This document shows, in pieces, positions 11,075 through 46,397 of a DNA stretch of 64,000 bases. Each line of letters opens with the position of its first letter. Within the stretch, counting starts at the first letter, position 1. Source of the stretch: an uncultured Solirubrobacterales bacterium. GTDB lineage: Bacteria; Actinomycetota; Thermoleophilia; Solirubrobacterales; 70-9. The position numbers and the translations under genes are program-made. The stretch covers positions 131,647-195,646 of the forward strand of contig CAWFPS010000001.1 in NCBI GenBank assembly GCA_963817905.1, in the 5' to 3' direction. The notes beneath the pieces are model-generated. The model did no database searches. It saw nothing but the letters and a program-made list of their open reading frames with translations, and was not told where the DNA came from.

Positions 11075-11191
11075 TCGAGTACGGGCGGCAGCGGGCCGTC
11101 CCTGTCGAACCCAACGAGTAGGGGAGCGCCGGTCTTCCTCTTTGCGGCCTCCTGTCGCAAGCGGTTCCTGGCCCCAGACGTTTGTTCCGCG

Positions 11192-12208: not shown

Positions 12209-13214
12209 ATGATCGAGGGTGGAAGGCACCTCGTCACCGGCGGCGCCGGCACGATCGGCTCGACCCTGGTCGACCAGCTGGTCGAGGCGGGCGCGGCCGA
12301 GGTGATCGTGCTCGACAACTTCGTCCGCGGCCGGCGCCAGAACCTCGAGTGGGCGCAGGCGAACGGCAACGTCACCGTGGTCGAGGGCGACGTCTGCGAC
12401 AAGCAGCTGGTCGGGGAGCTTAGCGGCGGCATCGACGTCGTCTTCCACCAGGCCGCGATCCGCATCACCCAGTGCGCGGAGGAGCCGCGGCTGGCGCTTG
12501 AGGTCTTGGTCGACGGCACCTTCAACGTGGTCGAGGCCGCCGCCAAAGCGGAGGTGCGCAGGCTGGTCGCCGCCTCCTCGGCATCGGTCTACGGGCTCGC
12601 CACCGAGTTCCCCACCGACGAGCTGCATCACCCATACGCCAACGACACGCTCTACGGCGCCGCCAAGACCTTCAACGAGGGGCTGCTGCGCAGCTACCAG
12701 GCGATGAGTGGCCTCGACTACGTCGCCCTGCGCTACTTCAACGTCTACGGGCCGCGGATGGACGTCCACGGCGTCTACACCGAGGTACTGGTGCGCTGGA
12801 TGGAGCGGATCGTCGCCGGCGAACCGCCACTGATCTTCGGCGACGGCACGCAGACGATGGACTTCGTCTGCGTTCCCGACATCGCCCGCGCCAACTTGCT
12901 CGCCGCCAATGCCGACGTGACCGACGCGGTCTTCAATGTCGCCAGCGGTGTCGAGACCAGCCTGCAGGAGCTGGCCGAGACACTGCTGCGGGTGATGGGC
13001 TCCGACCTGGCGATCGAGTACGGGCCCGAGCGGGCCGTGAACCGCGTGCCGCGCCGCCTCGCCGACACCGCAGCGGCGAAGCGGGAGCTCGGCTTCGAGG
13101 CCAGAGATCGGACTCGAGGAGGGCCTCGATATGCTGGTCGAGTGGTGGCGGTCGAGCAGCAGCGGGGCTGGCGCGCCGGGTCGGGCCGGGCTGGTCGCCT
13201 CGGAGGCTTCCTGA
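12209..13214 (+). CDS. NAD-dependent sugar epimerase/dehydratase (SDR), reading frame broken near 13103
   Basis: It carries the Rossmann motif VTGGAGTIGSTLV and the catalytic YGAAK. The conserved C-terminus EIGLEEGLDMLVEWW is only obtained by skipping base 13103. The stop then falls at 13212-13214 (TGATG junction). Confidence 0.8.
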
Positions 13215-14350
13215 TGGAGGTGCCCTTCGCCAAGCCGTGGTTCGGCGGCGGCGAGGCCGAGGCCGTGGCCGAGGTGATCGCCTCGGGCTGGCTGACCCAG
13301 GGCCCGCGGGTGGAGGAGTTCGAGCGCGCCTTCGCGGCCCGCGTCGGCGCGCCGGAGGCGGTCGCCACGACCAGCTGCACCACCGCCCTGCAGCTCTCGC
13401 TCTACGCCTCGGGGGTCGGACCGGGAGACGAGGTGATCGTCCCCTCGCTCTCCTTCATCGCCACCGCCAACGCGGTCTGGCAGTGCGGCGCGACGCCGGT
13501 CTTCGCCGACGTCGACCCTGCCACCTGCAACCTCGACCCCGCCGACGTCGAGCGGCGTTTGACGCCGCGCACGAAAGCGGTGATCCCCGTCCACCAGGTC
13601 GGCCTGCCGGCCGACATGGAGTGCTTTCTCGGTCTGGCCGAGCGCCACGGACTGACCCTGGTCGAGGACGCCGCCTGCGCGATCGGCGCGCTTTACCGAG
13701 GCCGGCCGATCGGCTCACTCGGGCCACTCGCCTGCTTCTCATTTCACCCGCGCAAGGTCATCACCTGCGGCGAGGGCGGGATGATCGCCGTCCACGATCC
13801 TCATCTCGCCGAGCGGCTGCGGCGGCTGCGCACGCACGCGATGGACCAGTCGGCGCTTGCCCGCCACAAGGCCCGCGACGTGGTCGTCGAGCACTACCCC
13901 GAGCGCGGCTGGAACGCGCGGATGACCGACCTCCAGGCCGCGGTCGGACTGCGCCAGCTCGACGTCCTCGACACGATCCTCGCCGAGCGTCGCCGTCTTG
14001 CCCATCGCTACTCGCAGGCCCTGGTGGAAATCCCCTGGATCGAGGTCCCCCGCGATCCTGCCTACGCCGAGCGGACCTGGCAGTCCTACCCGGTGCGGAT
14101 CGCCGCCGAGGCTCCGCTCGGGGCGGAAGAGCTGATGCGGGCGCTCTTGCGGCAGGGGGTTGCCACCCGCCGCGGGGTGATGGCGATCCACCGCGAGGGC
14201 GCCTACGCCGACACCGCTGTCAGCCTGCCGCACACCGAGGCGGCGGCGCGAGAGGTCGTGCTGCTGCCGCTCTTCCCTGGGCTAGAGGACGAGGCGCAGG
14301 ACTTCGTGATCGATTGCGTGGCCCAGGTCGGAATCGCCGAGGTGGCGTGA
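13214..14350 (+). CDS. DegT/DnrJ/EryC1/StrS-family PLP-dependent sugar aminotransferase
   Basis: Recognised motifs are MEVPFAKPWFGGGEAEAVAEVIASGWLTQGPRVEEFERAFA, VIVPSLSFIATANAV and FSFHPRKVITCGEGGMIAV (the PLP lysine region). Confidence 0.9.
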   Translation: MEVPFAKPWFGGGEAEAVAEVIASGWLTQGPRVEEFERAFAARVGAPEAVATTSCTTALQLSLYASGVGPGDEVIVPSLSFIATANAVWQCGATPVFADVDPATCNLDPADVERRLTPRTKAVIPVHQVGLPADMECFLGLAERHGLTLVEDAACAIGALYRGRPIGSLGPLACFSFHPRKVITCGEGGMIAVHDPHLAERLRRLRTHAMDQSALARHKARDVVVEHYPERGWNARMTDLQAAVGLRQLDVLDTILAERRRLAHRYSQALVEIPWIEVPRDPAYAERTWQSYPVRIAAEAPLGAEELMRALLRQGVATRRGVMAIHREGAYADTAVSLPHTEAAAREVVLLPLFPGLEDEAQDFVIDCVAQVGIAEVA

Positions 14351-15034
14351 GCGCGGAGCCGACAAGCCGGACCGCGTCGAGCACCGAGGGCTCGATTTGC
14401 CTTCAACGCCTCCGAGGCTGCGATTCGCCTTCTGGACATCGTCGGCGCGTCCGTCGCCCTGGTCCTTCTATCGCCGCTGCTGCTGGTCGTGGCGCTCGTG
14501 GTCAGGCTCGACTCGCCGGGCCGTGCGATCTTCAGGCAGCGCCGCCTGGGCAGGGACCTCGAGCCCTTCTCGGTCGCCAAGTTCCGCACGATGAGGCAGG
14601 GCGCTGACACCGAGGCCGGCGCCCACCGTTCCCACGTCGAGCAGATGATGGCCGACGAGGAGCGGCGCGGGACGCGGGCGATGTCGAAGCTGCAGGAGGA
14701 CGCTCGCGTCACCCGCGTCGGTAGCTTCCTGCGCCGAACCAGCATCGACGAGCTGCCGCAGCTGTGGAACGTGCTGCGCGGCGAGATGTCGCTGGTCGGC
14801 CCGCGACCGCCGATCCAGTACGAGGTCGACCGCTATCCGCCAGAGGCGTTTCGCCGCTTCGAGGTGCGCCCCGGAGTGACCGGCCTCTGGCAGGTGCGTG
14901 GCCGCAGCCTGCTCACCTTCAAGCAGATGATCGCGCTCGACACCGAGTACATCGAAACCCGCTCACCCGCGCTCAACCTGAAGATTCTTTTGCTCACCCT
15001 GCCGACCGTGATCCACGGCAAGGGCGCGGCGTGA
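14347..15034 (+). CDS. small phosphoglycosyl transferase (bacterial sugar transferase, PglC/WbaP-C-like); 5' end frame problem
   Basis: The sequence LLDIVGASVALVLLSPLLLVVALVVRLDSPGRAIFRQRRLG...DELPQLWNVLRGEMSLVGPRP is the family signature. The only canonical in-frame start is GTG 14489, which lies inside the membrane helix. GTG 14347 forms a GTGA overlap with the DegT stop but sits one frame off. Confidence 0.75.
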
Positions 15035-16288
15035 GCGGCTCACGCTGCGGCCGGGCTCTGCTGATCAGCGAGAACGCGCCGCTCCCCGGTGACCGTCGTG
15101 TCTGGAACGAGGCCCGGACGCTGGTCGATGTCGGCTGGGAGGTGGTCGCGGTCTGCGCTGCGGCAGCGGACCGTTCACAGCCCGCGAGCGAGACGATCGA
15201 GGGGATCGATGTCTACCGCTATCCCCTGCGACCGGCCGCCGGCGCACTCGGGTATGCACGGGAGTACGCCCAGGCGCTCTGGCGGATCCGGAAGCTGGTG
15301 CGGCGATTGCAGCGCGAGCGACCGTTCGACCTCGTTCACGCGGCCAACCCGCCCGACTTCCTCCTTCTCGCCGCTCGTTCGGCCCGCCGGCGCGGCGCTC
15401 GTTTTGTCTTCGACCATCACGACCTGACCCCGGAGCTCTTTCGCTCCCGCTTCGGTCGTGGCGGGATTCCGCACCGGGCGCTGCTGGCGATCGAGCGGCG
15501 GGCGATGCGCTCCGCGGATGTCGTGATCTCGACCAACGAGTCCTACCGGCAAATCGCGATCGAGCGTGGGGGGGTGGACCCCGAGGACGTCTTCGTCGTC
15601 CGCAACGGTCCCGACCTCGACCGCTTCCAGCCAGTACCGGCGGACCCGGACCTGCGCCGCGGCCGCCGTTACCTGCTCGCCTACCTGGGGGTGATGGGCC
15701 CGCAGGACGGCATCGACCATGCCCTGCGTTCGCTGTCGGCGCTGCGCGAGATGCGCGGGTGAGGACTGGCACGCCGTCTTCATCGGCGAGGGGGAGGTGC
15801 GCGGGGAGATGGAAATGCTGGCGGTGGAGCTGGGAATCGGGGGCTCGGTCGAGTTCGCCGGCTGGCGCGGCGACGATGACATCCGCCGCATCCTCTCGAG
15901 CGCGGACGTGGGCCTCGAGCCAGATCCGCCCAGCCCGCTCAACGACCGCTCGACGATGATCAAGGTCGCCGAGTACATGGCGATGGGCTGTCCCGTCGTC
16001 GCCTACGACCTGAAGGAGACCCGTGTCTCGGCCGGCGAGGCTGCCGCCTACGCGGAGGCGCCGACGCCCGCGGCGCTGGGGCGGTGCGTTCACCAGCTGC
16101 TCGAGGACCCGGAACGTCGGCGACAGATGGCACAGTTCGGCCGTGAACGGGTGGTCGATCTCTCCTGGCAACGGTCCGCGACGGCTCTCATCGCCGCCTA
16201 TGAGCGGGCGATGGGGCGGGAGACGCAGGCGGTTGGAAGCGGCGCCCGCGGCGGCTCGCCGGCGGCCGGGGTCGGGGTGAGCGGATGA
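15031..16288 (+). CDS. family 4 (GT-B) glycosyltransferase, frame broken at 15760
   Basis: The N-terminal half is ORF 14764..15762, read from GTG 15031 (GTGA overlap). The C-terminal half is ORF 15719..16288. Skipping t15760 joins ...SALREMRG to EDWHAVFIGEGEVRGEME..., giving a normal roughly 418-aa GT4. Confidence 0.8.
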
Positions 16289-17271
16289 GCCGCAGGGGCC
16301 GGCAGGGGCTGACCGCGGTGGTCGCGCTCTGCGCAGTCGCGGTCGCCGCCTACCTGGTCCTCGACTCACCGAGCTCGAGTGGCGAGCCGCCCAGCGCGCA
16401 GCCAGTCGGCGCCGGCGGCCCAACCGAGATCGTCGGCTCATCGCTGATGGTGCGCGCGGTCAACAGAAGCGATCCGCTCGCCAACGGCCGCGCTTTCGTC
16501 ATCAAGGGCGGCCATCCGCGGCAGCTGGACGGCCCCGAGCTCGATTGCGAGCGGGTCTATTACGCGGCCGGCCGTGGCCTCTGCCTCGCCGCCGCCGACA
16601 CCGAAAGCGGTTACGAAGCGACGATCTTCGACTCTTCGCTGGGAACGCTGTTCCGGATTCCGCTGGCCGGCGTGCCATCGCGAGCGCGAGTCTCGAGCGA
16701 TGGCCGCTTCGGCGCGATGACCGTGTTCGTCAACGGCCACGCCTACCTCGAGACCGGCGGCTACTCGACTGAGACGACGATCGTCGATATGCGCACCGGC
16801 CAGCAGGTGGCAAACCTCGAGAGCTTCAAGGTGAGCAAGGGGGAAAGGCCCTTCGACGCGGTCGATTTCAACTTCTGGGGCGTCACCTTCGCCGCCGACT
16901 CGAACCGCTTCTACGCAACCCTGCGCACGAAGGGGCGCTACTACCTGGTCGAAGGCGACGTGGCGGCGCGGAGGATGCGGGTCATACGCAACCACGTCGA
17001 GTGCCCGGGGCTCTCGCCCGACGGGACCCGGATCGCCTACAAGAGCCGCATCGCCAACGAAAACCGGTGGCAGCTAAAGGTCCTCGACCTCGCCACGATG
17101 CAGGCCCACGACGTTGCCGAGCAGCGGCCGATCGACGACCAGGTGGAGTGGCTCGACGACGAAACCCTGGTCTACTCGAACAGCTTCGACGTCTACACGG
17201 TTCCCGCCAACGGCAGCGGCGCGCCCAGGCTCGTCGTGCGCGACGCGAGCTCGCCCGTGGCACTGCGCTAA
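16285..17271 (+). CDS. membrane-anchored PD40/TolB-like beta-propeller protein
   Basis: An N-terminal TM segment (LTAVVALCAVAVAAYLV) is followed by LSPDGTRIAYKS-type PD40 repeat motifs. There is an ATGA overlap with the GT4. Confidence 0.6.
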   Translation: MSRRGRQGLTAVVALCAVAVAAYLVLDSPSSSGEPPSAQPVGAGGPTEIVGSSLMVRAVNRSDPLANGRAFVIKGGHPRQLDGPELDCERVYYAAGRGLCLAAADTESGYEATIFDSSLGTLFRIPLAGVPSRARVSSDGRFGAMTVFVNGHAYLETGGYSTETTIVDMRTGQQVANLESFKVSKGERPFDAVDFNFWGVTFAADSNRFYATLRTKGRYYLVEGDVAARRMRVIRNHVECPGLSPDGTRIAYKSRIANENRWQLKVLDLATMQAHDVAEQRPIDDQVEWLDDETLVYSNSFDVYTVPANGSGAPRLVVRDASSPVALR

Positions 17272-17359
17272 GGCAACTCTCAACGTTTAGTAGAGGGTTA
17301 GTGCCGAGTTCTGGTATCGGCGGTAAAAAAACGTCGCCCCAGCGACCGTTGCTCCACTA

Positions 17360-20300
17360 GTGGCCAAGCTCTGCCAAGGCATAGTCGCGGTTGCCCTGCT
17401 CTTGCTGGGTGGCCAGGGGGTGTTCGCCGAGATCGCGACGGCCGGTCCCTGCGATGCGCCAGTCAACGAAATCGTCTGCGAGAACTCCAAGGTCGGCAAT
17501 CCCGCGACCGAATGGGACATCGAAGGGTCCGGCGACCCAAGCATCCAGGGCTTCACCACCGACATCAGCGTCAATCATGGCCAGGCGGTCCGCTTCAAGA
17601 TCAAGACCGACGCGACCGCCTACCACCTCGACATCTACCGGATGGGCTACTACGGTGGCGATGGCGCCCGCAAGGTGGCGTCCAGCATCCTGCCCTCGGC
17701 GAAACTTCCCCAGAGCCAGCCAGCCTGCAAAACCGAAGGGTCCACCGGTCTCTTCGACTGTGGCAACTGGTCTGAATCGGCCTCTTGGACGGTGCCGTCG
17801 ACAGCGGTCTCTGGCATCTACTTCGCCAAGCTGGTGCGGACCGACAAAAGCTCGGAAGGAAGCCACGATCATTTTCGTCGTGCGCAACGACGAAAGCCAC
17901 TCGAAGCCTGCTCTTCCAGACCGCCGACTCGACCTGGCAGGCATACAACCGCTACGGCGGCAACAGCCTCTACGCCGGCGGCCCGGGAACGAATCCCGAA
18001 CGCGCCTACAAGGTCAGCTACAACCGGCCACTGACGACCCGCGGGACGACCCCGGAAGACGCGCCCTTCTCGGCCGAATACCCGATGGTGCGCTGGCTGG
18101 AGCGAAACGGCTACGACGTCAGCTACTTCACCGGCGTAGACGATCGCCCGCCGCGGCGGCGAGATCCTCGCAGCACGAAGCTCTTCCTCTCGGTCGGCCA
18201 TGACGAGTACTGGTCGGCCGAGCAGCGCGAAAACGTCGAAGCGGCGCGCGAAGCGGGAGTCAATCTCGCCTTCTTCAGCGGCAACGAGATCTTCTGGAAG
18301 ACCCGCTGGGAAAACAGCATCGACGGGTCCAGCACCGGCTATCGCACGATCGTCTGTTACAAGGAGACCCACGCCGGCGCCAAGATCGACCCCGAAACCA
18401 AACGTCTGGACCGGAACCTGGCGCGACCCACGCTTCAGCCCGCCGGCTGACGGCGGCAAGCCCGAGAACTCGCTCAGCGGACAGGCCTTCATGGTCAACT
18501 CCGGCACCGGCTCGATCGAAGTGCCGGCGGCGGACGCGAAACTGCGCCTCTGGCGCAACACCGACGTCGCTTCGCTTAAAGCGGGCGAAACGGCAACTCT
18601 GGGCACCGAAACCCTCGGTTATGAGTGGGACGAAGACCTCGACAACGGCGCCCGGCCGCCGGGGTTGATCGATCTCTCCACGACCACGTTTGAAGTGCAG
18701 GATTATCTGATCGACTACGGCTCCAACTACCTGCCCGGGCCGGCAACCCACCACCTGACGCTCTACCGGGACGCCGAGCGGAGCGCTGGTCTTCGGCGCC
18801 GGCACGGTGCAGTGGTCATGGGGGCTGGACGAAGAACATGACCGCGGCGCCTATCCGCGGAATCCGGACTCCCGCATGCAGCAGGCGACGGTGAACCTGT
18901 TTGCCGATATGGGCGTGCAGCCGACGACTTTGCAGGAAGGCATCGTCGCGGCAACCCAGAGCACCGACACGACGCCGCCGGTGACGACGATCGCCAATCC
19001 GGCCGATGGCTCCGCGATCGAAAGCGGAGAGGAGATGACGATCAGCGGCACTGCCAGCGACGTCGGGGGGCAGGTGGCGGGGGTCGAAGTCTCGACCGAC
19101 GGTGGAGAATCCTGGCACCCGGCGAAGGGGAAGACCGCCTGGACCTACCCCTGGACACCGGGGGAAACGGGCAGCGCGACGATCAAGGCGCGCGCCGCCG
19201 ACGACAGCGCCAACCTGGAGAAACCGGGCGACCAGAACAGCATCGAAATCGTGCCCCGCTCGTGCCCCTGTTCGATCTGGGACAGCTCCTTCACCGGCGA
19301 ACCTGAAACGGACCCGAGCGAGATCGAAGTCGGGGTCAAGTTCCGCGCCGATACGCCCGGCTACATCACGGGACTGCGCTTCTACAAGACTCCGCGAAGG
19401 CACCGGAACCCATGTCGGCCACCTCTACACGGCAGGCGGGGCGCAGATGGCGGAAGCGACCTTCACGAAAGAAACCTCCTCCGGCTGGCAACAGGTGGAC
19501 CTCGCCAAACCGGTCGCGATCAACGCCAACACGACCTACGTTGCTTCCTACTACGCGCCCAATGGCCACTACGCGGCGCTGAGTAACTACTTCTCGGTGG
19601 TCGGGGCCGACAGCGCGCCGTTGCATGCGCTCGCCGACGGCGTTGACGGCCACAACGGCGTCTACCACTATGGAGTCGACGGTACCCTCTTCTCCGGCGC
19701 TGGACCGGAATCGTTCCAGGCGACCAACTACATGGTCGATGTTGTCTTCGAGTCCGAAGAACAGCCGCCGGTGATCTCCAATGTCCAGACGGTCGCTCAC
19801 AACGACGGCACGGCGATGGTCACCTGGGAGACTGATAAAGCCTCCGACTCCAAAGTGGATTACGGGACCAGTTCAAGTTCGCTCGGATCGAGTAAAAGCA
19901 GCTCGACCCAGGTCACCTCGCACAGCATTCAACTCAGCGGCCTCGCGGCAAACACGACCCACTACTTCCGCGTCACCTCGGCGGCGGGGGTCAACACTCG
20001 TACCGAACCCAGCCCGCTTCTCTCGCCGCTGAGCTTCATTACTCCACCCGCGGCCCCGACTCTGACGGGGACCGTTCCGGCGTCGCCGGCGAACAACAAC
20101 TCGCCAAAAGTGGTGGGCTCCGCGGCGAGCGGGACCACGGTGCGCCTCTACGGCACCAGTGGCTGCACCGGTTCACCGCTGGTGACCGCTAGTGCAGCCG
20201 AACTGGCAGCGGGCGTGTCCGCGACGGTCGCCGATGACACGAGCACCACCTTCCGAGCAACCGCCACCGGTTCGGCAAGCGAGGCCTCAGCTTGCTCGGC

Positions 20301-23300
20301 GGGGCTCACCTATGTTGAGGACTCGACAGCGCCGCAGACGCAGATCAGCTCGGGGCCGCCGACCCTAAGCACCTCGGCAAGTGCCGAACTCGAATTCTCC
20401 GGCACCGATTCTGGTGGCTCGGGCGTCGCCTCCTATGAGTGCCGGATCGACTCGACCGAACCCAGCGCCTGGGCATCGTGCACGTCGCCGAAGACCTACA
20501 ACTCACTCGCCGACGGCGCCCATAAATTCGAAGTCCGCTCGATCGACACGGCGGGCAACATCGACACCTCTCCGGCGGCCTCCAACTGGACCGTCGACAC
20601 AACCGCCCCGATCACGCAGATCGACTCCGGCCCGAGCGCGCTCAGCGCCTCAGGCACCGCCAATTTCGAATTCTCCGGCACCGACACTGGTGGCTCGGGC
20701 GTCGCCTCCTATGAGTGCCGGATCGACTCGACCGAACCCGGCGCCTGGGCATCCTGCACGTCGCCGAAGACCTACAACTCACTCGCCGACGGCGCCCATA
20801 AATTCGAAGTGCGGGCGATCGACACTGCCGGCAACGCCGACAGCAGCCCGGCGGCCTCCAACTGGACCGTCGACACCACGGCGCCTCAGGTGCAGATCAT
20901 TTCGGAGCCGGCCTCGATCTCGTCGTCAGCCGAAGCGACCTTCGCCTTCTCGGGTACAGACATCGGCGGCTCCGGCGTTGCCTCCTACCAGTGTCGACGT
21001 GACTCCGAAGCGCCCGGCGCCTGGGAGGTCTGCGGCTCTCCCGAGACCTATAACGCCCTCGCCGAGGGTCCCCACAAATTCGAAGTGCGGGCAGTCGACG
21101 GCGCCGGCAACGTCACCGCGCCACCTGCGACCTACGCCTGGACGATCGACACCGTTGCCCCTCAGACCCTGATCGACTCCAATCCGACGGCGGTAACGGC
21201 GTCCACCAGTGCCAACTTCAGCTTCTCGGGTTCGGACACCGGCGGCTCGGGCGTCGCCTCCTATGAGTGTCGGATCGACTCGACCGAACCGAGCGCCTGG
21301 GCATCGTGCACGTCGCCGAAGACCTACACCGGCCTCGCCGACGGCGCCCATAAATTCGAAGTGAGGGCGATCGACACTGCCGGCAACGCCGACAGCAGCC
21401 CGGCGACCTACGCCTGGACCGTCGACACCACCGTGCCCGAGACCCAGATCGACTCGACCCCGGTTTCCCTGAGCGCTTCGGCCAAAGCCGAATTCGGCTT
21501 TGGCGGCAATGACGGCTCGGGGTCCGGAGTCGCCTCGTTCCAGTGCCGCATCGACTCCACCGAAGCTGCCGACTGGAAAGCCTGCAGCTCGGTCAAGACC
21601 TACGAATCGCTCGCCGACGGCTCCCACAAATTCGAAGTCCGCTCGATCGATGTGGCCGGCAACACCGACCAGAGCCCGGCAACCTTCAGCTGGACGATCG
21701 ACACCGCCGCGCCCGACACCCAGATCGACTCCGGCCCCGCTGCGCTGGTCGCCTCGGCCAACGCCGAACTCAAATTCTCCGGCACCGACACTGGTGGCTC
21801 GGGCGTCGCCTCCTATGAGTGCCGGATCGACTCGACCGAACCCAGCGCCTGGACATCCTGCACGTCGCCGAAGACCTACAACTCACTCGCCGACGGCGCC
21901 CATAAATTCGAAGTCCGCTCGATCGACACGGCGGGCAACATCGACACCTCTCCGGCGGCCTCCAACTGGACCGTCGACACAACCGCCCCGATCACGCAGA
22001 TCGACTCCGGCCCGAGCGCGCTCAGCGCCTCAGGCACCGCCAATTTCGAATTCTCCGGCACCGACACTGGTGGCTCGGGCGTCGCCTCCTATGAGTGCCG
22101 GATCGACTCGACCGAACCCGGCGCCTGGACATCCTGCACGTCGCCGAAGACCTACAACTCACTCGCCGACGGCGCCCATAAATTCGAAGTGCGGGCGATC
22201 GACACTGCCGGCAATGCCGACCAGAGCCCGGCGACCTTCAGTTGGACCGTCGACACGACCGCCCCACAGACCCAGATCGACTCCAATCCGACGGCGGTAA
22301 CGGCGTCCACCAGTGCCAACTTCAGCTTCTCGGGTTCGGACACCGGCGGCTCGGGCGTCGCCTCCTATGAGTGCAGGGTCGACTCGACCGAACCCAGCGC
22401 CTGGACATCCTGCACGTCGCCGAAGACCTACAACTCCCTCGCCGACGGCGCCCATAAATTCGAAGTCCGCTCGATCGATGTGGCCGGCAATACCGACCAG
22501 GGCCCGGCGACCTTCAGCTGGACGATCGACACCACCGCGCCCGACGCCCAGATCGACTCCGGCCCCGCTGCACTGGTCGCCTCGGCCAACGCCGAACTCG
22601 AATTCTCCGGCACCGATTCTGGTGGCTCGGGCGTCGCCTCCTATGAGTGCCGGATCGACTCGACCGAACCCAGCGCCTGGGCATCGTGCACGTCGCCGAA
22701 GACCTACAACTCACTCGCCGACGGCGCCCATAAATTCGAAGTGAGGGCGATCGACACGGCGGGCAACATCGACACCTCTCCGGCGGCCTCCAACTGGACC
22801 GTCGACACAACCGCCCCGATCACGCAGATCGACTCCGGCCCGAGTGCGCTCAGCGCCTCAGGCACCGCCAAATTCGAATTCTCCGGCACCGACACTGGTG
22901 GCTCGGGCGTCGCCTCCTATGAGTGTCGGATCGACTCGACCGAACCGAGCGCCTGGGCATCGTGCACGTCGCCGAAGACCTACACCGGCCTCGCCGACGG
23001 CGCCCATATGTTCGAAGTGCGGGCGATCGACACTGCCGGCAATGCCGACAGCAGCTCGGCGGCCTCCAACTGGACTGTCGACACAACCGCGCCCGATACA
23101 CAGGTCGACGCTGGGCCGTCGGCTCTGAGCACCTCGGCCGACGCAGAATTCACCTTCTCCGGTGACGACGGTTCGGGCTCTGGTGTCGCCTCCTACCAGT
23201 GTCGCCGCGACTCCGAAGAAGCCAAAGATTGGGTTCCGTGCGGCCCGCCACAGACCTATCCCGCCCTCGCCGACGGCGCCCACAAATTCGAAGTCCGCGC

Positions 23301-26300
23301 CTCCGACCAGGCCGGCAACACCGATCCGAGTCCCGCCGTCTTCAACTGGACCATCGACGCGACCGCGCCGCAGACGCAGATCGATGCCCAGCCCGTGGTG
23401 CTCAGCGCGTCCCCAACCGCGCAGTTCACCTTCTCCGGTGACGACGGTTCGGGCTCTGGTGTCGCCTCCTATGAGTGCAGGGTCGACTCGACCGAGGCGG
23501 GCGGCTGGGCGCCGTGCGCCTCGCCCAAGACCTACACCTCACTCGCCGATGGCGCCCACAAATTCGAAGTGAGGGCAGTCGACGCCGCTGGCAACGTTGA
23601 CCAGAGCCCGGCGTCCTTCAGTTGGACAGTGGATGCCACCGCGCCCGATTCCCAAATCAGTTCCAACCCGCTGCTATTGAGCGCCTCCCCGAAAGCCGAA
23701 TTCAGCTTCACCGGCAGCGACGGATCCGGCTCGGGCGTGGCCTCCTACGAATGCCGCCTGGACTCGACTCAGTCCATCGACTGGAAAGCCTGCGCCTCGA
23801 CCAAGGAATACACGGGCCTCGTCGATGGCGCCCACAAATTCGAAGTGCGGGCAATCGATCAGTTCGGCAACGTTGACCAGAGTCCGGCGACCTTCAGCTG
23901 GACGATCGACACTACCGCCCCGCAGACCCAGATTGACTCCGGCCCGAGTGCGCTCAGCGCCTCAGGCACCCCCAAATTCGAATTCTCAGGCACCGATTCT
24001 GGTGGCTCGGGCGTCGCCTCCTATGAGTGCCGGATCGACTCGACCGAACCCAGCGCCTGGGCATCGTGCACGTCGCCGAAGACCTACAACTCACTCGCCG
24101 ACGGCGCCCATAAATTCGAAGTCCGCTCGATCGACACGGCGGGCAACACCGACACCTCTCCGGCGACCTCCAACTGGACCGTCGACACAACCGCGCCCGA
24201 GACCCAGATCGACTCGAACCCGGTTTCCCTGAGCGCTTCGGCCAAAGCCGAATTCGGCTTTGGCGGCAATGACGGCTCGGGGTCCGGAGTCGCCTCGTTC
24301 CAGTGCCGCATCGACTCGACCGAAGCTGCCGACTGGCAGCCGTGCGCCTCGGTCAAGACCTACGAATCGCTCGCCGACGGCTCCCACAAATTCGAAGTCC
24401 GCTCGATCGATGTGGCGGGCAACGCCGACCAGAGCCCGGCGACCTTCAGCTGGACGATCGACACCACCGTGCCCGACACCCAGATCGACTCCGGCCCCGC
24501 TGCACTGGTCGCCTCGGCCAGCGCCGAACTCAAATTCTCCGGCACCGATTCTGGTGGCTCGGGCGTCGCCTCCTATGAGTGCCGGATCGACTCCACCGAA
24601 GCTGCCGACTGGCAGTCGTGCACCTCGGCCAAGGAATACAACTCACTCGCCGACGGCGCCCATAAATTCGAAGTCCGCTCGATCGACACGGCGGGCAACA
24701 CCGACACCTCTCCGGCGACCTCCAACTGGACCGTCGACACAACCGCGCCCGAGACCCAGATCGACTCGAACCCGGTTTCCCTGAGCGCTTCGGCCAAAGC
24801 CGAATTCGGCTTTGGCGGCAATGACGGCTCGGGGTCCGGAGTCGCCTCGTTCCAGTGCCGCATCGACTCGACCGAAGCTGCCGACTGGCAGCCGTGCGCC
24901 TCGGTCAAGACCTACGAATCGCTCGCCGACGGCTCCCACAAATTCGAAGTCCGCTCGATCGATGTGGCGGGCAACACCGACCAGAGCCCGGCGACCTTCA
25001 GCTGGACGATCGACACCACCGTGCCCGACACCCAGATCGACTCCGGCCCCGCTGCACTGGTCGCCTCGGCCAGCGCCGAACTCAAATTCTCCGGCACCGA
25101 TTCTGGTGGCTCGGGCGTCGCCTCCTATGAGTGCCGGATCGACTCCACCGAAGTTGCCGACTGGCAGTCGTGCACCTCGGCCAAGGAATACAACTCACTC
25201 GCCGACGGCGCCCATAAATTCGAAGTGCGGGCGATCGACACTGCCGGCAACGCCGACACCTCTCCGGCGACCTCCAACTGGACCGTCGACACAACCGCGC
25301 CCGAGACCCAGATCGACTCGAACCCGGTTTCCCTGAGCGCTTCGGCCAAAGCCGAATTCGGCTTTGGCGGCAATGACGGCTCGGGGTCCGGAGTCGCCTC
25401 GTTCCAGTGCCGCATCGACTCGACCGAAGCTGCCGACTGGCAGCCGTGCGCCTCGGTCAAGACCTACGAATCGCTCGCCGACGGCTCCCACAAATTCGAA
25501 GTCCGCTCGATCGATGTGGCGGGCAACACCGACCAGAGCCCGGCGACCTTCAGCTGGACGATCGACACCACCGTGCCCGACACCCAGATCGACTCCGGCC
25601 CCGCTGCACTGGTCGCCTCGGCCAGCGCCGAACTCAAATTCTCCGGCACCGATTCTGGTGGCTCGGGCGTCGCCTCCTATGAGTGCCGGATCGACTCCAC
25701 CGAAGTTGCCGACTGGCAGTCGTGCACCTCGGCCAAGGAATACAACTCACTCGCCGACGGCGCCCATAAATTCGAAGTCCGCTCGATCGACACGGCGGGC
25801 AACACCGACACCTCTCCGGCGACCTCCAACTGGACCGTCGACACCACCGCCCCGATCACGCAGATCGACTCCGGCCCGAGCGCGCTCAGCGCCTCAGGCA
25901 CCGCCAAATTCGAATTCTCCGGCACCGATTCTGGTGGCTCGGGCGTCGCCTCCTATGAGTGCCGGATCGACTCGACCGAACCCAGCGCCTGGGCATCGTG
26001 CACGTCGCCGAAGACCTACAACTCACTCGCCGACGGCGCCCATAAATTCGAAGTGCGGGCGATCGACACTGCCGGCAACACCGACAGCAGCCCGGCGGCC
26101 TCCAACTGGACCGTCGACACAACCGCTCCCGAGACCCAGATCGACTCGAACCCGGTTTCCCTGAGCGCTTCGGCCAACGCCGAACTCGAATTCTCAGGCA
26201 CCGATTCTGGTGGCTCGGGCGTCGCCTCCTATGAGTGCCGGATCGACTCGACCGAACCCAGCGCCTGGGCATCGTGCACGTCGCCGAAGACCTACAACTC

Positions 26301-29300
26301 ACTCGCCGACGGCGCCCATAAATTCGAAGTCCGCTCGATCGACACGGCGGGCAACACCGACACCTCTCCGGCGACCTCCAACTGGACCGTCGACACCACC
26401 GCCCCGATCACGCAGATCGACTCCGGCCCGAGCGCGCTCAGCGCCTCAGGCACCGCCAAATTCGAATTCTCCGGCACCGATTCTGGTGGCTCGGGCGTCG
26501 CCTCCTATGAGTGCCGGATCGACTCGACCGAACCCAGCGCCTGGGCATCGTGCACGTCGCCGAAGACCTACAACTCCCTCGCCGACGGCGCCCATAAATT
26601 CGAAGTCCGCTCGATCGACACGGCGGGCAACACCGACACCTCTCCGGCGACCTCCAACTGGACCGTCGACACAACCGCGCCCGAGACCCAGATCGACTCG
26701 AACCCGGTTTCCCTGAGCGCTTCGGCCAAAGCCGAATTCGGCTTTGGCGGCAATGACGGCTCGGGGTCCGGAGTCGCCTCGTTCCAGTGCCGCATCGACT
26801 CGACCGAAGCTGCCGACTGGCAGCCGTGCGCCTCGGTCAAGACCTACGAATCGCTCGCCGACGGCGCCCATAAATTCGAAGTCCGCTCGATCGACACGGC
26901 GGGCAACATCGACACCTCTCCGGCGGCCTCCAACTGGACCGTCGACACAACCGCCCCGATCACGCAGATCGACTCCGGCCCGAGCGCGCTCAGCGCCTCA
27001 GGCACCGCCAATTTCGAATTCTCCGGCACCGACACTGGTGGCTCGGGCGTCGCCTCCTATGAGTGCCGGATCGACTCCACCGAAGCTGCCGACTGGCAGT
27101 CGTGCACCTCGGCCAAGGAATACAACTCCCTCGCCGACGGCGCCCATAAATTCGAAGTCCGCTCGATCGACACGGCGGGCAACACCGACACCTCTCCGGC
27201 GACCTCCAACTGGACCGTCGACACCACCGCCCCGATCACGCAGATCGACTCCGGCCCGAGCGCGCTCAGCGCCTCAGGCACCGCCAAATTCGAATTCTCC
27301 GGCACCGATTCTGGTGGCTCGGGCGTCGCCTCCTATGAGTGCCGGATCGACTCGACCGAACCCAGCGCCTGGGCATCGTGCACGTCGCCGAAGACCTACA
27401 ACTCCCTCGCCGACGGCGCCCATAAATTCGAAGTCCGCTCGATCGACACGGCGGGCAACACCGACACCTCTCCGGCGACCTCCAACTGGACCGTCGACAC
27501 AACCGCGCCCGAGACCCAGATCGACTCGAACCCGGTTTCCCTGAGCGCTTCGGCCAAAGCCGAATTCGGCTTTGGCGGCAATGACGGCTCGGGGTCCGGA
27601 GTCGCCTCGTTCCAGTGCCGCATCGACTCGACCGAAGCTGCCGACTGGCAGTCGTGCACCTCGGCCAAGGAATACAACTCCCTCGCCGACGGCGCCCATA
27701 AATTCGAAGTCCGCTCGATCGACACGGCGGGCAACACCGACACCTCTCCGGCGACCTCCAACTGGACCGTCGACACCACCGCCCCGATCACGCAGATCGA
27801 CTCCGGCCCGAGCGCGCTCAGCGCCTCAGGCACCGCCAAATTCGAATTCTCCGGCACCGATTCTGGTGGCTCGGGCGTCGCCTCCTATGAGTGCCGGATC
27901 GACTCCACCGAAGCTGCCGACTGGCAGTCGTGCACCTCGGCCAAGGAATACAACTCCCTCGCCGACGGCGCCCATAAATTCGAAGTCCGCTCGATCGACA
28001 CGGCGGGCAACACCGACACCTCTCCGGCGACCTCCAACTGGACCGTCGACACCACCGCCCCGATCACGCAGATCGACTCCGGCCCGAGCGCGCTCAGCGC
28101 CTCAGGCACCGCCAAATTCGAATTCTCCGGCACCGATTCTGGTGGCTCGGGCGTCGCCTCCTATGAGTGCCGGATCGACTCCACCGAAGCTGCCGACTGG
28201 CAGCCGTGCGCCTCGGTCAAGACCTACGAATCGCTCGCCGACGGCTCCCACAAATTCGAAGTCCGCTCGATCGATGTGGCGGGCAACACCGACCAGAGCC
28301 CGGCGACCTTCAGCTGGACGATCGACACCACCGTGCCCGACACCCAGATCGACTCCGGCCCCGCTGCACTGGTCGCCTCGGCCAGCGCCGAACTCAAATT
28401 CTCCGGCACCGATTCTGGTGGCTCGGGCGTCGCCTCCTATGAGTGCCGGATCGACTCCACCGAAGCTGCCGACTGGCAGCCGTGCGCCTCGGTCAAGACC
28501 TACGAATCGCTCGCCGACGGCTCCCACAAATTCGAAGTCCGCTCGATCGACACGGCGGGCAACACCGACACCTCTCCGGCGACCTCCAACTGGACCGTCG
28601 ACACCACCGTGCCCGACACCCAGATCGACTCGAACCCGGTTTCCCTGAGCGCTTCGGCCAAAGCCGAATTCGGCTTTGGCGGCAATGACGGCTCGGGGTC
28701 CGGAGTCGCCTCGTTCCAGTGCCGCATCGACTCGACCGAAGCTGCCGACTGGCAGCCGTGCGCCTCGGTCAAGACCTACGAATCGCTCGCCGACGGCTCC
28801 CACAAATTCGAAGTCCGCTCGATCGATGTGGCGGGCAACACCGACCAGAGCCCGGCGACCTTCAGCTGGACGATCGACACGGCCCCGCCTGCGGTAGCGA
28901 TCGATTCCCTGTCCAAGACTCTCATCGGCGCCGGCCAGTCGAGCGAAGTGCATTGGCACGCCACGGAGAACGGCGCCTTCGAGCTGCGCGTGGGGGGGAG
29001 CGACTGCACCAGCGGGACCGTCGTGGCCTCCGGCGCTTACGGCTCCGCACCGGGTCAACACATCTCCACCGTCGCCGCCACGGATCTCTCAGAAGGCGCG
29101 AACGCATTGCGGCTCTGTGTCACCGATGCGGCGGGGAGTCGCGGCGCCACTACTGCGAGCTTGACCCGAGACACCACCGCCCCCGAGACCCAGATCGACG
29201 CCCACCCGGCGGCGCTCTCGATCTCCTCCTCGGCCCAGTTCGCCTTCTCCGGCACCGACCTCGGTGGCTCGGGCGTCGCCTCCTATGAATGCCGCCGCGA

Positions 29301-32300
29301 CTCCACCGAAGCGAGCGCCTGGTCCTCCTGCGCCTCCCCGCAGTCCTACGCCTCGCTCACAGACGGTGCCCACACCTTCCAGGTCCGCGCCACCGACGTC
29401 GCCGGCAACGCCGACGGCTCACCGGCCGCCTTCAATTGGACGGTGGACACGACGCCGCCCACGGCGACGATCGACTCCGGCCCCTCCGGGCTGACCAACG
29501 ATGCGACCCCGAGCTTCGAGTTCCACTCCTCCGAGGCAGGCTCTGCCTTCGAGTGCTCGATCGACACCGGCACTCCGGCCTACGGCCCCTGCTCGGGCCC
29601 GGGCTCCCACACCCCCGCCGGCGCCCTCGCCGACGGCCCCCACACCTTCCGCGTGCGCGCCACCGATGCCGCCGGCAACCTGGGCACGGCGGCGACCCGG
29701 GCCTTCACCGTCGACACCACCGCCCCGCCGGCGCCCGAGCTGACCTCCACGGCACCGCCCTCGCCGGCGAACAACAACTCGCCCAAGGTGATCGGCTCGG
29801 CCCCGGCGGGCTCCACCGTGCGCCTTTACTCCGGCGCGGACTGCTCGGGCACCCCGCTTGCCACCGTCTCGGCCGCCCAGCTGGCCGCCGGGATCACCGT
29901 CTCGGTCCCCGATGACTCGAGCACCTCCTTCCACGCCACCGCGACCACCGCCGCCGAAAACACCTCCGGCTGTTCGGCCCCGATCGCCTACGTCGAGGAC
30001 TCGAGCGCGCCGCAGACCCAGATCGACGGGCACCCCGGTGCACTCAGCGCCTCGGCCACCGCCCAGTTCGAATTCTCCGCCAGCGACGGCTCCGGCTCGG
30101 GCGTCGCCTCCTACCAGTGCCGGATCGACTCCACCCAGGGAGTGGACTGGAACGCCTGCACCTCGCCCAAGGCCTACACCTCGCTCGGCGAGGGAGCCCA
30201 CAAGCTCGAAGTGCGGGCAATCGACGCCGCCGGCAACACCGACGCCACGCCGGCCGACTTCGAGTGGAGTATCGACACGGCAGCCCCGCAGACCCAGATC
30301 GATACCCACCCGGCCACCCTCGCCACCAGCGCCGCGGCCCAGTTCACCTTCTCGGGCACCGACGCCGGCGGCTCGGGGGTCGCCTCCTACCAGTGCCGCC
30401 GCGACTCCAGCGAAGCGAGCGCCTGGGTCTCCTGCACCTCGCCGCAGTCCTACGCCACCCTCGCCGACGGTTCCCACAGCTTCGAAGTGCGGGCGATCGA
30501 CCAGGCCGGCAACGCCGACGCCTCACCGGCCGCCTTCTCCTGGAGCATCGACACCACCGCGCCGCAGACCCAGGTCGACACCCACCCGAGCTCACCGAGC
30601 AACTCCGCCGCGGCCCAGTTCGCCTTCTCGGGCACCGACACGGGTGGCTCGGGCGTCGCCTCCTATGAATGCCGCCGCGACTCGAGCCAGGCAGCCGACT
30701 GGGAGGCCTGCAGCTCACCGAAGAGCTACGCCTCGCTCGGCGAGGGAGCCCACAGCTTCGAAGTGCGTGCGGTGGACGTTGCCGGCAACGCCGACGGCTC
30801 ACCGGCCGCCTTCAACTGGACGGTGGACACGACGCCGCCGAATACCCAGGTCGACTCTCACCCGACATCGCTCACCACCGCCACCTCGGCCCAGTTCGCC
30901 TTCTCCGGCACCGACACTGGCGGATCCGGGGTCGTCGCCTACGAATGTCGCCGTGACTCCAGCGAACAGAGCGCCTGGGCAGCCTGTGCTTCTCCCAAGA
31001 ACTACAGCGCCCTCACCGACGGCGGCCACAAATTCGAGGTTCGCTCGGTGGACGCCGCCGGCAACGCCGACCAGAGCCCCGCCAGCTTCGACTGGAGCAT
31101 CGACACCACCGCCCCCGAGACCCAGATCGACGCCCACCCGGCGGCGCTCTCGATCTCCTCCTCGGCCCAGTTCGCCTTCTCCGGCACCGACCTCGGTGGC
31201 TCGGGCGTCGCCTCCTATGAATGCCGCCGCGACTCCACCGAAGCGAGCGCCTGGTCCTCCTGCGCCTCCCCGCAGTCCTACGCCTCGCTCACAGACGGTG
31301 CCCACACCTTCCAGGTCCGCGCCACCGACGTCGCCGGCAACGCCGACGGCTCACCGGCCGCCTTCAATTGGACGGTGGACACGACGCCGCCCACGGCGAC
31401 GATCGACTCCGGCCCCTCCGGGCTGACCAACGATGCGACCCCGAGCTTCGAGTTCCACTCCTCCGAGGCAGGCTCTGCCTTCGAGTGCTCGATCGACACC
31501 GGCACTCCGGCCTACGGCCCCTGCTCGGGCCCGGGCTCCCACACCCCCGCCGGCGCCCTCGCCGACGGCCCCCACACCTTCCGCGTGCGCGCCACCGATG
31601 CCGCCGGCAACCTGGGCACGGCGGCGACCCGGGCCTTCACCGTCGACACCACCGCCCCGCCGGCGCCCGAGCTGACCTCCACGGCACCGCCCTCGCCGGC
31701 GAACAACAACTCGCCCAAGGTGATCGGCTCGGCCCCGGCGGGCTCCACCGTGCGCCTTTACTCCGGCGCGGACTGCTCGGGCACCCCGCTTGCCACCGTC
31801 TCGGCCGCCCAGCTGGCCGCCGGGATCACCGTCTCGGTCCCCGATGACTCGAGCACCTCCTTCCACGCCACCGCGACCACCGCCGCCGAAAACACCTCCG
31901 GCTGTTCGGCCCCGATCGCCTACGTCGAGGACTCGAGCGCGCCGCAGACCCAGATCGACGGGCACCCGGCCAATCCGGTCAGCTCGGCGATCGCGACGTT
32001 CACCTTCTCGGGCACCGACACCAGTGGCTCCGGCATCGCCGGCTATGAATGCCGCCTCGACTCGAGCCAGGCAGGCGATTGGTCGCTGTGTACCTCACCG
32101 AAGAGCTACGCCTCGCTCGGCGAGGGAGCCCACAGCTTCGAAGTGCGTGCGGTGGACGTTGCCGGCAACGCCGACGGCTCACCGGCCGCCTTCAACTGGA
32201 CGGTGGACACGACGCCGCCGAATACCCAGGTCGACTCTCACCCGACATCGCTCACCACCGCCACCTCGGCCCAGTTCGCCTTCTCCGGCACCGACACTGG

Positions 32301-35300: not shown

Positions 35301-35415
35301 GCGGATCAGCTTCAAGGCCAAGGGCGAGGCTACCGTCAGCCGAATGCTGGCGATCACGCTGAAGCGCCGCGACCTCCACCGGCTGAAGCGCAACCGTCAC
35401 CACAGCAGGAGCTAG
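17360..35415 (+). CDS. giant repetitive surface protein (about 6,000 aa when reconstructed); head region carries five +1 frame breaks
   Basis: The colinear protein is spread over ORFs 17360, 17391, 17785, 18200, 18807 and 19102. It begins with the signal peptide MAKLCQGIVAVALLLLGGQGVFA. The head matches the N,N-dimethylformamidase-beta-like family (DISVNHGQAVRFKIKT, YHLDIYRMGYYGG, LLFQTADSTWQAYNRYGGNSLY, FLSVGHDEYWS, AFFSGNEIFWKTRWE, WTGTWRDPRF, GALVFGAGTVQWSWGLD). Then come a DUF4082-like region (GYITGLRFYK..GTGTHVGHLY), an FN3-like domain, 5 NNNSPKV-type Ig-like domains and about 48 two-Cys 92-aa domains. Confidence 0.85.
20335..28895 (+). repeat. 31 tandem 276-bp coding repeats (92-aa two-Cys Ig-like domain)
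   Basis: The unit consensus is QIDSGP.ALSAS..A.FEFSGTDSGGSGVASYECRIDSTE..W.SCTSPKTYNSLADGAHKFEVR.ID.AGN.D.SPA...WTVDTTAP.T. Shadow ORFs recur at offsets of 276 and 552 bp (for example 24260, 24812, 25364). Confidence 0.95.
29170..34151 (+). repeat. nested kb-scale duplications inside the giant gene
   Basis: 29170-30839 equals 32482-34151 (offset 3312). 29170-30035 equals 31102-31967 (offset 1932). 30716-31967 equals 32096-33347 (offset 1380). I judged identity from identical shadow-ORF translations in several frames (for example 29419..30477 = 32731..33789, and 29289..29915 = 31221..31847 = 32601..33227) and from junctions read by eye. Confidence 0.85.
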
Positions 35416-45711: not shown

Positions 45712-45761
45712 CCGATCGCTCCCGTGTCTACCGACGACCGCCCGCTCCGTCAACGACGGGA

Positions 45762-46336: not shown

Positions 46337-46397
46337 GTGTCAAAGTCATTGCGGTAAAGAAGCTTCTAATTACCCCAATTACTGCTTTACTACCCCC

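Follow-up and report, generated by a model that had tools for sequence, protein, structure and literature searches.

Eleven clustered single-base insertions in a Solirubrobacterales polysaccharide and surface-protein locus are very probably a long-read consensus artefact

Why should a polysaccharide gene cluster and the start of the giant surface-protein gene beside it change reading frame again and again, always in the same direction, within 6.3 kb? The question arises in a 64,000-nucleotide stretch of contig CAWFPS010000001.1 from an uncultured Solirubrobacterales bacterium, referred to here as the window. An earlier note had called eight +1 breaks between 13103 and about 19395 and had offered three explanations: an unpolished long-read patch with insertion-biased error, a recombined or foreign patch, and coordinated decay of polysaccharide and adhesin functions. 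We find that the frame breaks are truly in the sequence, yet they are almost certainly a data-quality artefact and not the mark of decaying genes.

Using the DegT gene as an anchor, we obtained 75 related loci, of which 13–73 Solirubrobacterales loci cover a given site, depending on the site (the interval 14365–14396 was judged against locus L003). At each reported break the coding frame moves from f to f+1 in the GC3 frame plot, in Pfam domain continuity and in three-frame translation. MAFFT alignments of ±60 nt with 6–11 relatives, together with a phase vote that took in every collinear relative, place a single surplus base in the window at each of these points, so that homologues back all eight calls. 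The total, however, is higher: the patch at 13103–19395 holds 11 single-base insertions and no deletions (Table 1). The additional insertions near 18142, 18171 and 18181 had been overlooked because the trio jointly restores the frame. Voted together, 18171 and 18181 appear as a +2 shift in 10 of 13 relatives, and taking out base 18181 yields HEAFLSVGHDEYW, the same residues as in L024. The second insertion is placed to an interval because the N-terminus of the sugar transferase is poorly conserved.

Table 1. Extra bases and genes of the patch, in window coordinates; phase votes are relatives agreeing/relatives covering the site
Feature	Position	Strand	Context and evidence
Extra base 1	13103	+	GCC[A]GAG; one extra column vs 11/11 aligned relatives; phase vote 72/73
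Extra base 2	within 14365-14396	+	net +1; gap vs L003 = 13 nt = 12+1
Extra base 3	15760	+	GG[G/T]GAG; alignment; phase vote 23/24
Extra base 4	17867	+	CA[C/G]ATC; CAC or CAG in relatives; phase vote 13/13
Extra base 5	17906	+	AA[G]CCTG; alignment; phase vote 13/13
Extra base 6	~18142	+	GAC[G/A]TCG; alignment; phase vote 10/13; fine-scale codon-model scan peak 9.1
Extra base 7	~18171	+	CTC[G/C]AGCAC; GAG or CAG in relatives; alignment
Extra base 8	~18181	+	GC[T/C]TTC; brings frame back to f1
Extra base 9	18387..18395	+	in CCCC or in GAAA, exact base ambiguous; alignment; phase vote 10/13
Extra base 10	~18771	+	GGG[A]CGCC; alignment; phase vote 13/13
Extra base 11	19395	+	CC[G/C]GAA within DUF4082 domain; Pfam and alignment; phase vote 13/13
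NAD-dependent epimerase/dehydratase gene	12209..13214	+	Pfam Epimerase/GDP_Man_Dehyd at aa 8-298; corrected translation
DegT/DnrJ/EryC1-type aminotransferase gene, intact	13214..14350	+	Pfam profile positions 7-359 of 360
Bac_transf sugar (phospho)transferase gene	14347..15034	+	Pfam Bac_transf profile positions 24-178 of 179, in f2
GT4-family glycosyltransferase gene, split at 15760	15031..16288	+	Glyco_trans_4 N-terminal domain in f1; Glycos_transf_1 profile positions 45-172 in f2
Hypothetical protein gene inside patch, intact	16285..17271	+	single-frame matches to L002, L003, L037; phase vote without shift
Giant secreted/surface protein gene	17360..35415	+	6016 aa once corrected; Pfam domains split over frames

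As written, the window runs the epimerase into the DegT gene as a false 713-aa fusion ORF (12209..14350), leaves the sugar transferase without a start and the GT4 gene in two parts, and breaks the first 2 kb of the giant gene into at least five fragments. Automated pipelines would call these ORFs pseudogenes or novel fusions. Deleting the 11 bases restores the conserved full-length ORFs of the epimerase, the sugar transferase, the GT4 glycosyltransferase and the 6016-aa surface protein, with no internal stop in any corrected gene and a single terminal stop in the surface protein. After 13103 the C-terminus of the epimerase is read in f0, with the tail EIGLEEGLDMLVEWW, and ends in a TGA overlapping the start codon of the DegT gene (TGATG). 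The sugar transferase starts at a GTG in f1 overlapping the DegT stop (GTGA) and continues in f2, a frame in which the first start codon does not come before 14489; the f1 start ‘VSAEPT’ and the f2 segment ‘RFA..IRLLD’ both match the single-frame homologue in L003. The GT4 glycosyltransferase is one ORF in L001, L002 and L037, and the DegT gene shows no window-specific shift in a phase vote against 73 relatives.

The giant protein carries a signal peptide, a DMFA2_C-like domain, Big_7, DUF4082 and many Ig-like (Big_13) repeats. Its gene takes eight or nine of the extra bases, all in the first 2 kb and within a span of ~1.5 kb. The gene is a single ORF in L002 and L003, and its N-terminal module lies in one ORF in 7640 homologues; none of 5.8 billion proteins matches the corrected module above about 73% identity; nor did the collections searched hold a sister strain above about 80% nucleotide identity. 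Among 333 columns of the corrected N-terminus that are invariant in eight relatives, only five differ in the window, the fewest of the nine sequences. GC3 stays at 0.8–0.95 across the patch, and codon bias is fully kept.

The breaks are strongly clustered. Eleven of the 12 events lie in 6.3 kb out of ~34 kb that can be checked against relatives (P < 1e-6 under uniform placement, a rough binomial estimate), in line with the earlier view that the distribution is not uniform. Outside the patch, relatives cover 3.2–13.1, 19.4–24.3 and 51–64 kb. The claim that no comparable break occurs elsewhere stands for insertions, but these regions do contain one shift, a missing base near 52371, which is of the opposite kind and is indicated by 26/26 relatives. 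In the regions of the window without relatives, Pfam and the codon model revealed no split genes. Several further candidates proved false: at 10257–10335 and 10858–10892 the Wzz/Wzy gene aligns in a single frame to L003 and L037; the overlapping-ORF architecture at 5536 is also kept in L003; 58894 is an ordinary cytidylyltransferase C-terminus; 39761 falls in a single continuous LuxR-type ORF; and at 12068 the frame is maintained in relatives.

As the earlier note had observed, no break lies in a long homopolymer, a repeat or a slippery heptamer: base runs at the sites do not exceed 4 nt, and TRF detects four weak arrays in the patch, all away from the breaks. The homopolymers of six or more bases within the patch (15568, 17325 and 19065) do not coincide with breaks either, and we found no motif common to the break sites. 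Phase variation by simple-sequence slippage resembles this locus in that a one-base change of frame is needed for the full protein, but it acts at a homopolymer or short tandem repeat tract, and no shift site here has one. GATC occurs within 6 nt of 5/10 sites against a background of 12.7% (post-hoc P about 0.005). Yet of the 555 GATC sites in the window, none outside the patch is affected; neither GATC nor a methylation motif can therefore account for the clustering, and the association is no more than a hint.

The error type is found again in the relatives, where it follows the sequencing platform. Most of the relatives come from the MFD-LR MAG catalogue, which is Nanopore-only and was built with metaFlye and one round of Medaka (PMC12313526). 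In these Nanopore loci we counted about 120 extra-base against 24 missing-base locus-specific frameshift events; 22 of the 111 isolated extra bases are of homopolymer type, leaving ~80% outside homopolymers. Locus-specific extra bases are present in MFD loci and not in k141/SMAG loci of the same genes. A homology-free count gives 2.82 frameshift candidates per 10 kb in Nanopore loci (312 in 1106 kb), compared with 0.30 in short-read GTDB loci and 0.20 in JGI contigs. Judging solely by the origin of the relatives and by this signature, the window is most probably itself of long-read origin and unpolished by short reads, Nanopore-only and assembled in Flye/Medaka style.

The best explanation, and a very probable one, is that the breaks are consensus errors of a long-read assembly, made where read support was locally poor or came from mixed populations; this favours the first of the explanations offered earlier. 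Eleven spurious single bases would have been written into otherwise intact genes while the consensus of a long-read metagenome was built. Read support of the stretch was presumably thin or mixed; residual Nanopore indels are documented below about 40x coverage (PMC9262707). Reads of related, co-occurring populations may have been stacked on this gene cluster, which many Solirubrobacterales have in common, and where a site varies the polisher may have written out the two alternatives one after the other; CA[C][G]ATC is an example, the relatives having either CAC or CAG. Errors arising at variable sites fit the observation that 83% of 90 non-homopolymer extra bases in relatives adjoin a third codon position (67% expected, P = 3e-4), a signal that could be inflated by the gap-placement bias of the aligner. 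In the organism itself, both the polysaccharide gene cluster and the giant surface protein are most likely intact.

The locus shares with known long-read indel errors the single-base indels that are missing from homologues and split or fuse ORFs, as well as a signature that Nanopore-only MAGs show often and short-read assemblies seldom. Such frameshift errors of Nanopore and PacBio CLR reads are reportedly measured by IDEEL-type tests and corrected by tools such as proovframe (preprint 10.1101/2021.08.23.457338). The textbook case, however, is an error of homopolymer length, often a deletion, spread genome-wide, and the classic residual Nanopore error is a homopolymer indel (PMC9262707), whereas the patch has insertions only, at runs of at most 4 nt, all within 6.3 kb.

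If the 11 insertions were instead real, they would inactivate the epimerase, the sugar transferase, the GT4 transferase and the giant surface protein, amounting to a recent coordinated loss of polysaccharide and adhesin. The genes hit are indeed functionally linked and act at the cell surface, the clustering is far above chance, and adjacent frame-disrupted genes of one functional theme are also seen in bacterial pseudogene decay, as in reductive evolution and O-antigen or adhesin loss. Bacterial mutation is usually deletion-biased, with substitutions ~10 times commoner than indels; real decay with nine indels should therefore bring many substitutions and some stops. The patch shows neither the mixture of insertions, small and larger deletions and nonsense codons expected of decay nor the relaxed purifying selection and codon-bias erosion that accompany it. 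There are insertions only and no nonsense codons once the frame is restored; the eight or nine hits in ~1.5 kb of the giant gene come without an excess of amino-acid changes; and GC3 is undiminished. In addition, the DegT and 16285–17271 genes are untouched though they lie inside the patch, and the identical signature is tied to platform in the relatives. Coordinated decay, as proposed earlier, is accordingly improbable. We consider it very unlikely that the insertions are genuine in a narrower sense, as a very recent knock-out of the surface-polysaccharide genes and the giant adhesin by insertion-only, locally targeted mutation, for example at an error-prone-repair hotspot; if true, this would be a previously undescribed mode of coordinated surface-antigen loss.

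We also weighed recombination, horizontal acquisition or an assembly join of two populations as the source of the stretch, with the breaks marking the mosaic. Loci for polysaccharides and adhesins often differ between strains, and GC falls from ~0.70 to ~0.64 near 17 kb. The drop is nevertheless a property of the whole giant gene and extends to ~29 kb, and foreign origin alone would give no reason for conserved codons to carry frame errors of a single base. From 3.2 to 24.3 kb, across both edges of the patch, the window stays collinear with L003 and L037 at an unbroken identity of 77–86% per kb bin, with no step in identity or base composition at 13.1 or 19.4 kb, where joins had been suggested. 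This explanation is thus highly doubtful.

Expression through programmed +1 ribosomal frameshifting or transcriptional slippage at the break sites, to which the common direction of every shift, the need for a one-base change of frame as in prfB/RF2-type frameshifting, and the stop in the old frame right after the shift at 15760 (GGG TGA G, loosely RF2-site-like) might point, is effectively refuted by the absence of the shift from the 13–73 relatives in the phase votes, and has next to no chance given that no motif, slippery sequence, repeat or Shine-Dalgarno-plus-stop arrangement is common to the sites, that 10/11 lack both a stop and an obvious pause codon where the frame changes, and that three shifts in 40 nt and eight or nine in one gene would leave a negligible full-length yield.

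Reading the breaks as a consensus artefact changes the biology of the organism little, since the polysaccharide gene cluster is most likely ordinary. It bears more on how related data are used. Across the related MFD loci, a non-homopolymer, insertion-biased and patchy variant of long-read error is common: in these Nanopore-only, high-GC soil MAGs, most frameshift errors are insertions of one base outside homopolymers, grouped in kb-scale patches, at ~10 times the short-read rate. Local patches of this kind would escape per-genome averages such as coding density, and inference of gene loss needs prior frameshift-aware correction or short-read polishing. Candidates in the Nanopore loci form patches with clean flanks, for example at 8.9–13.0 kb in L068, 8.9–12.0 kb in L070 and 9.1–16.5 kb in L071. 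In six Nanopore relatives the patches begin at the epimerase gene. Errors aimed specifically at the conserved epimerase–DegT cluster were considered and set aside: over 50 Nanopore loci the shared centre is enriched just 1.6x, and we therefore do not claim region specificity. Similar base contexts also recur, with ‘tctcg[C]agcg’ in L067 beside ‘cctcg[C]agca’ in the window.

Because the window has a GC content of ~68%, open reading frames (ORFs) alone are unreliable as gene evidence, and the true coding frame was set in three ways: from GC by codon position, from the continuity of Pfam domains and from three-frame translation. Adjacent genes of the series at 11-35 kb overlap via the classic TGATG, GTGA or ATGA, so the expected start and end of each gene are fixed. 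A long Ig-like (Big_13) repeat array at ~20320-28600 of the giant gene keeps one frame throughout, with a period of ~276 nt seen both in the offsets of blastn matches to two related loci, L003 and L037, and in recurring codon-model peaks.

Genes and single-base events in the window; the phase vote gives collinear relatives supporting a window-specific shift/relatives covering it
Feature	Position	Strand	Phase vote	Remark
GT2 glycosyltransferase		+		first gene of the plus-strand series, 11-35 kb
NAD-dependent epimerase/dehydratase	12209-	+		ends 13214 at TGATG overlap once corrected
DegT-type aminotransferase	13214-14350	+
Bac_transf sugar transferase	14347-15034	+
GT4 glycosyltransferase	15031-16288	+
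Hypothetical gene	16285-17271	+
Giant gene	17360-35415	+		GTG start, ORF continuous to 35415; signal peptide, DMFA2_C-like, Big_7, DUF4082, many Ig-like repeats
Insertion	13103		72/73
Insertion	14365-14396
Insertion	15760		23/24
Insertion	17867		13/13
Insertion	17906		13/13
Insertion	~18142		10/13
Insertion	~18171		10/13
Insertion	~18181		10/13
Insertion	~18390		10/13
Insertion	~18771		13/13
Insertion	19395		13/13
Missing base	~52371			absent relative to 26/26 relatives
Metallo-beta-lactamase-fold gene	52191..53354	-
Wzz/Wzy gene	8879-11089	-		one ORF, ~735 aa
Large secreted-type protein	35450-37747	-
Large secreted-type protein	41341-45753	-
Fic/DOC-domain gene	45963-47450	+
AAA_14 + DUF4143 ATPase gene	47803-49002			between the Fic/DOC-domain genes
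Fic/DOC-domain gene	49073-50137	-

The eight frame breaks reported in the earlier note, which lie at 13103-19395 (here called the patch), are all present, and each is +1 by GC by codon position, Pfam, translation and the alignments of relatives. Pfam profiles are interrupted precisely at the breaks: positions 2-72, 84-245 and 231-350 of DMFA2_C fall in three separate frames, positions 9-40 and 39-143 of DUF4082 are split over two, and the GT4 halves lie in two different frames. A DegT-anchored scan of species-representative genomes yielded 75 related loci, every one from a MAG of Solirubrobacterales or Thermoleophilia; those with the best collinearity (L003, L037, L071, L002 and L001) share ~79-85% DNA identity with the window; no sister strain of the organism was found in the collections searched. 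Each orthologous gene is one uninterrupted ORF in L001 and L002, both short-read assemblies, and in L003; when these ORFs are aligned to the window, the match moves from one window frame to the next at the reported breaks. At seven of the breaks, MAFFT alignments (+-60 nt) contain one column found in the window only. The eighth, placed earlier at 14350-14420, is real and can be narrowed to 14365-14396, no finer: the Bac_transf protein starts with a GTG in frame f1 that overlaps the DegT stop (its 'VSAEPT' start is shared with L003), and its remainder lies in f2, where the first start codon comes not before 14489.

The count of eight, however, is too low. Alignment of the DNA with relatives revealed three additional window-only bases at 18142-18181, where the protein as written reads 'DDRPPRRRDPRSTKLF' against a 'DADRRGSEILEHKAFL'-like sequence in every relative, the expected reading being roughly 'DIARRGGEILQHEAFL'. 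The true frame between the three is f2 ('ARRGGEIL'), then f0 ('QHEA'), then f1 again. They fall within 40 nt and jointly restore the frame, and ORF-based checks are therefore blind to them; the 10/13 vote for ~18171 and ~18181 is one vote on the two as a +2 shift. The patch thus holds 11 single-base insertions and 0 deletions, with seven of the insertions packed into 525 nt (17867-18390).

Outside the patch, the phase vote over relatives gave no window-specific shift at 3.2-13.1 kb or 19.4-24.3 kb; spots flagged there proved to be gene boundaries, intergenic DNA or a Pro/Ala-rich linker, and a suspected break in the minus-strand Wzz/Wzy gene was dismissed on its one-frame alignment to L003, L037 and L071. 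The region from 51 to 64 kb was compared with metagenome contigs located with the phosphomannomutase gene as anchor (80 mostly short-read loci, 10-74 deep). The single event found there is opposite in type to the patch insertions: the base missing at ~52371 (probably GG to G), which 26/26 short-read relatives have, falls 6 codons short of where the metallo-beta-lactamase-fold gene normally ends ('..RYETTG*'), and the ORF of this gene overruns by ~60 codons, to 52191. For 24-51 kb we relied on homology-free evidence, namely ORF continuity, Pfam and a fine-scale codon-model scan. Every Pfam domain at 35-60 kb is complete within one ORF, and the scan found nothing credible beyond the patch while recovering the 18142 control at a score of 9.1. 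The earlier statement that no comparable break occurs elsewhere needs a small correction for the one missing base. The clustering itself is upheld, as 11 of 12 frame-shift events lie within 6.3 kb of the ~34 kb checkable against relatives.

Most relatives come from the Microflora Danica (MFD) long-read catalogue, which is Nanopore-only and was built by metaFlye assembly and one Medaka round (PMC12313526). When every relative was used in turn as the test sequence, the Nanopore loci showed many locus-specific frameshifts, predominantly single extra bases (L068, 25/35; L073, 29/34; L071, 16/20; L074, 16/19; L067, 14/16; L070, 12/12; L058, 5/5), with a total of ~120 extra-base versus 24 missing-base events. 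Only 22 of 111 isolated extra bases are of homopolymer type, and their contexts resemble those of the window. A homology-free detector (a codon-model Viterbi that flags a same-strand frame switch without a stop codon in the old frame) yielded candidates at 2.82 per 10 kb for the Nanopore loci, where they are grouped in patches with clean flanks, compared with 0.30 for short-read GTDB loci and 0.20 for JGI contigs; assembled from short reads, the same genes are essentially free of such shifts. The window matches this signature, with 11/11 insertions, non-homopolymer contexts and one 6-kb patch. Because the Nanopore relatives share the direction, context and patchiness of the errors, a signature linked to platform among the related loci, the patch is very probably a long-read assembly consensus artefact, and an unpolished or low-coverage long-read patch, the first cause proposed in the earlier note, is the best supported. 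Nanopore assemblies of modest coverage are documented to retain indels, the textbook type being the homopolymer indel (PMC9262707), whereas the window insertions lie outside homopolymers. The MFD loci L067-L074, L058, L062 and L005 carry dozens of their own frameshifts, mostly non-homopolymer single extra bases in kb-scale patches; the DegT gene of L071 is broken into four or more pieces.

At several sites the window has two adjacent bases where relatives have either one (CA[C][G]ATC for CAC or CAG; [G][C]AGCAC for GAG or CAG; CC[G][C]GAA for CCG or CCC). Among 90 non-homopolymer extra bases of Nanopore relatives, 83% abut a third codon position versus 67% expected (P = 3e-4), a test open to bias from aligner gap placement. 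Both patterns fit a consensus that, drawn from a thin or mixed pileup, would emit both alleles of a variable site. The patch also coincides with the most widely shared part of the window (73 loci share its DNA at 12.2-14.3 kb, 13 out to 19.75 kb and 3-7 outside), which would make it easier for reads of co-occurring populations to cross-map onto the shared stretch; error enrichment over the shared centre is just 1.6 times across 50 Nanopore loci. The insertions may have arisen in these ways. GATC, unusually frequent across the window (8.7 per kb), occurs within 6 nt of 5/10 insertion sites (13103, 17867, 18142, 18171 and 18390) versus a 12.7% background (post-hoc P ~0.005). This proximity may hint at motif- or methylation-linked basecalling trouble, but it is unable to explain the clustering.

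Removal of the 11 bases yields an epimerase of 334 aa terminating in the TGATG overlap, a sugar transferase of 228 aa, a GT4 enzyme of 418 aa and a surface protein of 6016 aa, with no internal stops in any of the four. The N-terminal module of the giant protein is one ORF in thousands of homologues; its corrected form departs at 5 of 333 columns invariant in eight relatives, the fewest among nine sequences. GC by codon position is normal all through the patch. The patch genes are very probably intact genes with spurious added bases, neither decaying nor part of a foreign insert. Real pseudogenisation, which the earlier note raised as coordinated decay, is improbable given an insertion-only spectrum, corrected genes without stops, no relaxed constraint and two genes inside the patch left untouched. 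A foreign or recombined patch, also raised there, is less credible still, with synteny and identity to relatives continuous and identity to L003 and L037 smooth across both patch edges. Programmed +1 frameshifting is exceedingly unlikely and phase variation is excluded: the sites have no common motif or repeat, tandem repeats, slippery heptamers and base runs >4 nt are absent from all of them, and the shift is absent from all orthologues.

The Wzz/Wzy gene, kept whole in L003, L037 and L071 at 74-79% amino-acid identity, has a Wzy_C/O-antigen-ligase C-terminal half and an N-terminal half that has no Pfam match and was interpreted as resembling a chain-length determinant (Wzz). Of the two large secreted-type proteins, one (1470 aa) has galactose-oxidase/Kelch and Big_7 domains and the other (765 aa) weak Ig-like matches; a second DegT aminotransferase and a LuxR-type regulator adjoin both, which suggests an extended cell-surface locus. 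The stretch with the two Fic/DOC-domain genes and the ATPase gene has a lower GC content (0.63-0.69) and may represent an accessory or mobile islet of small size.
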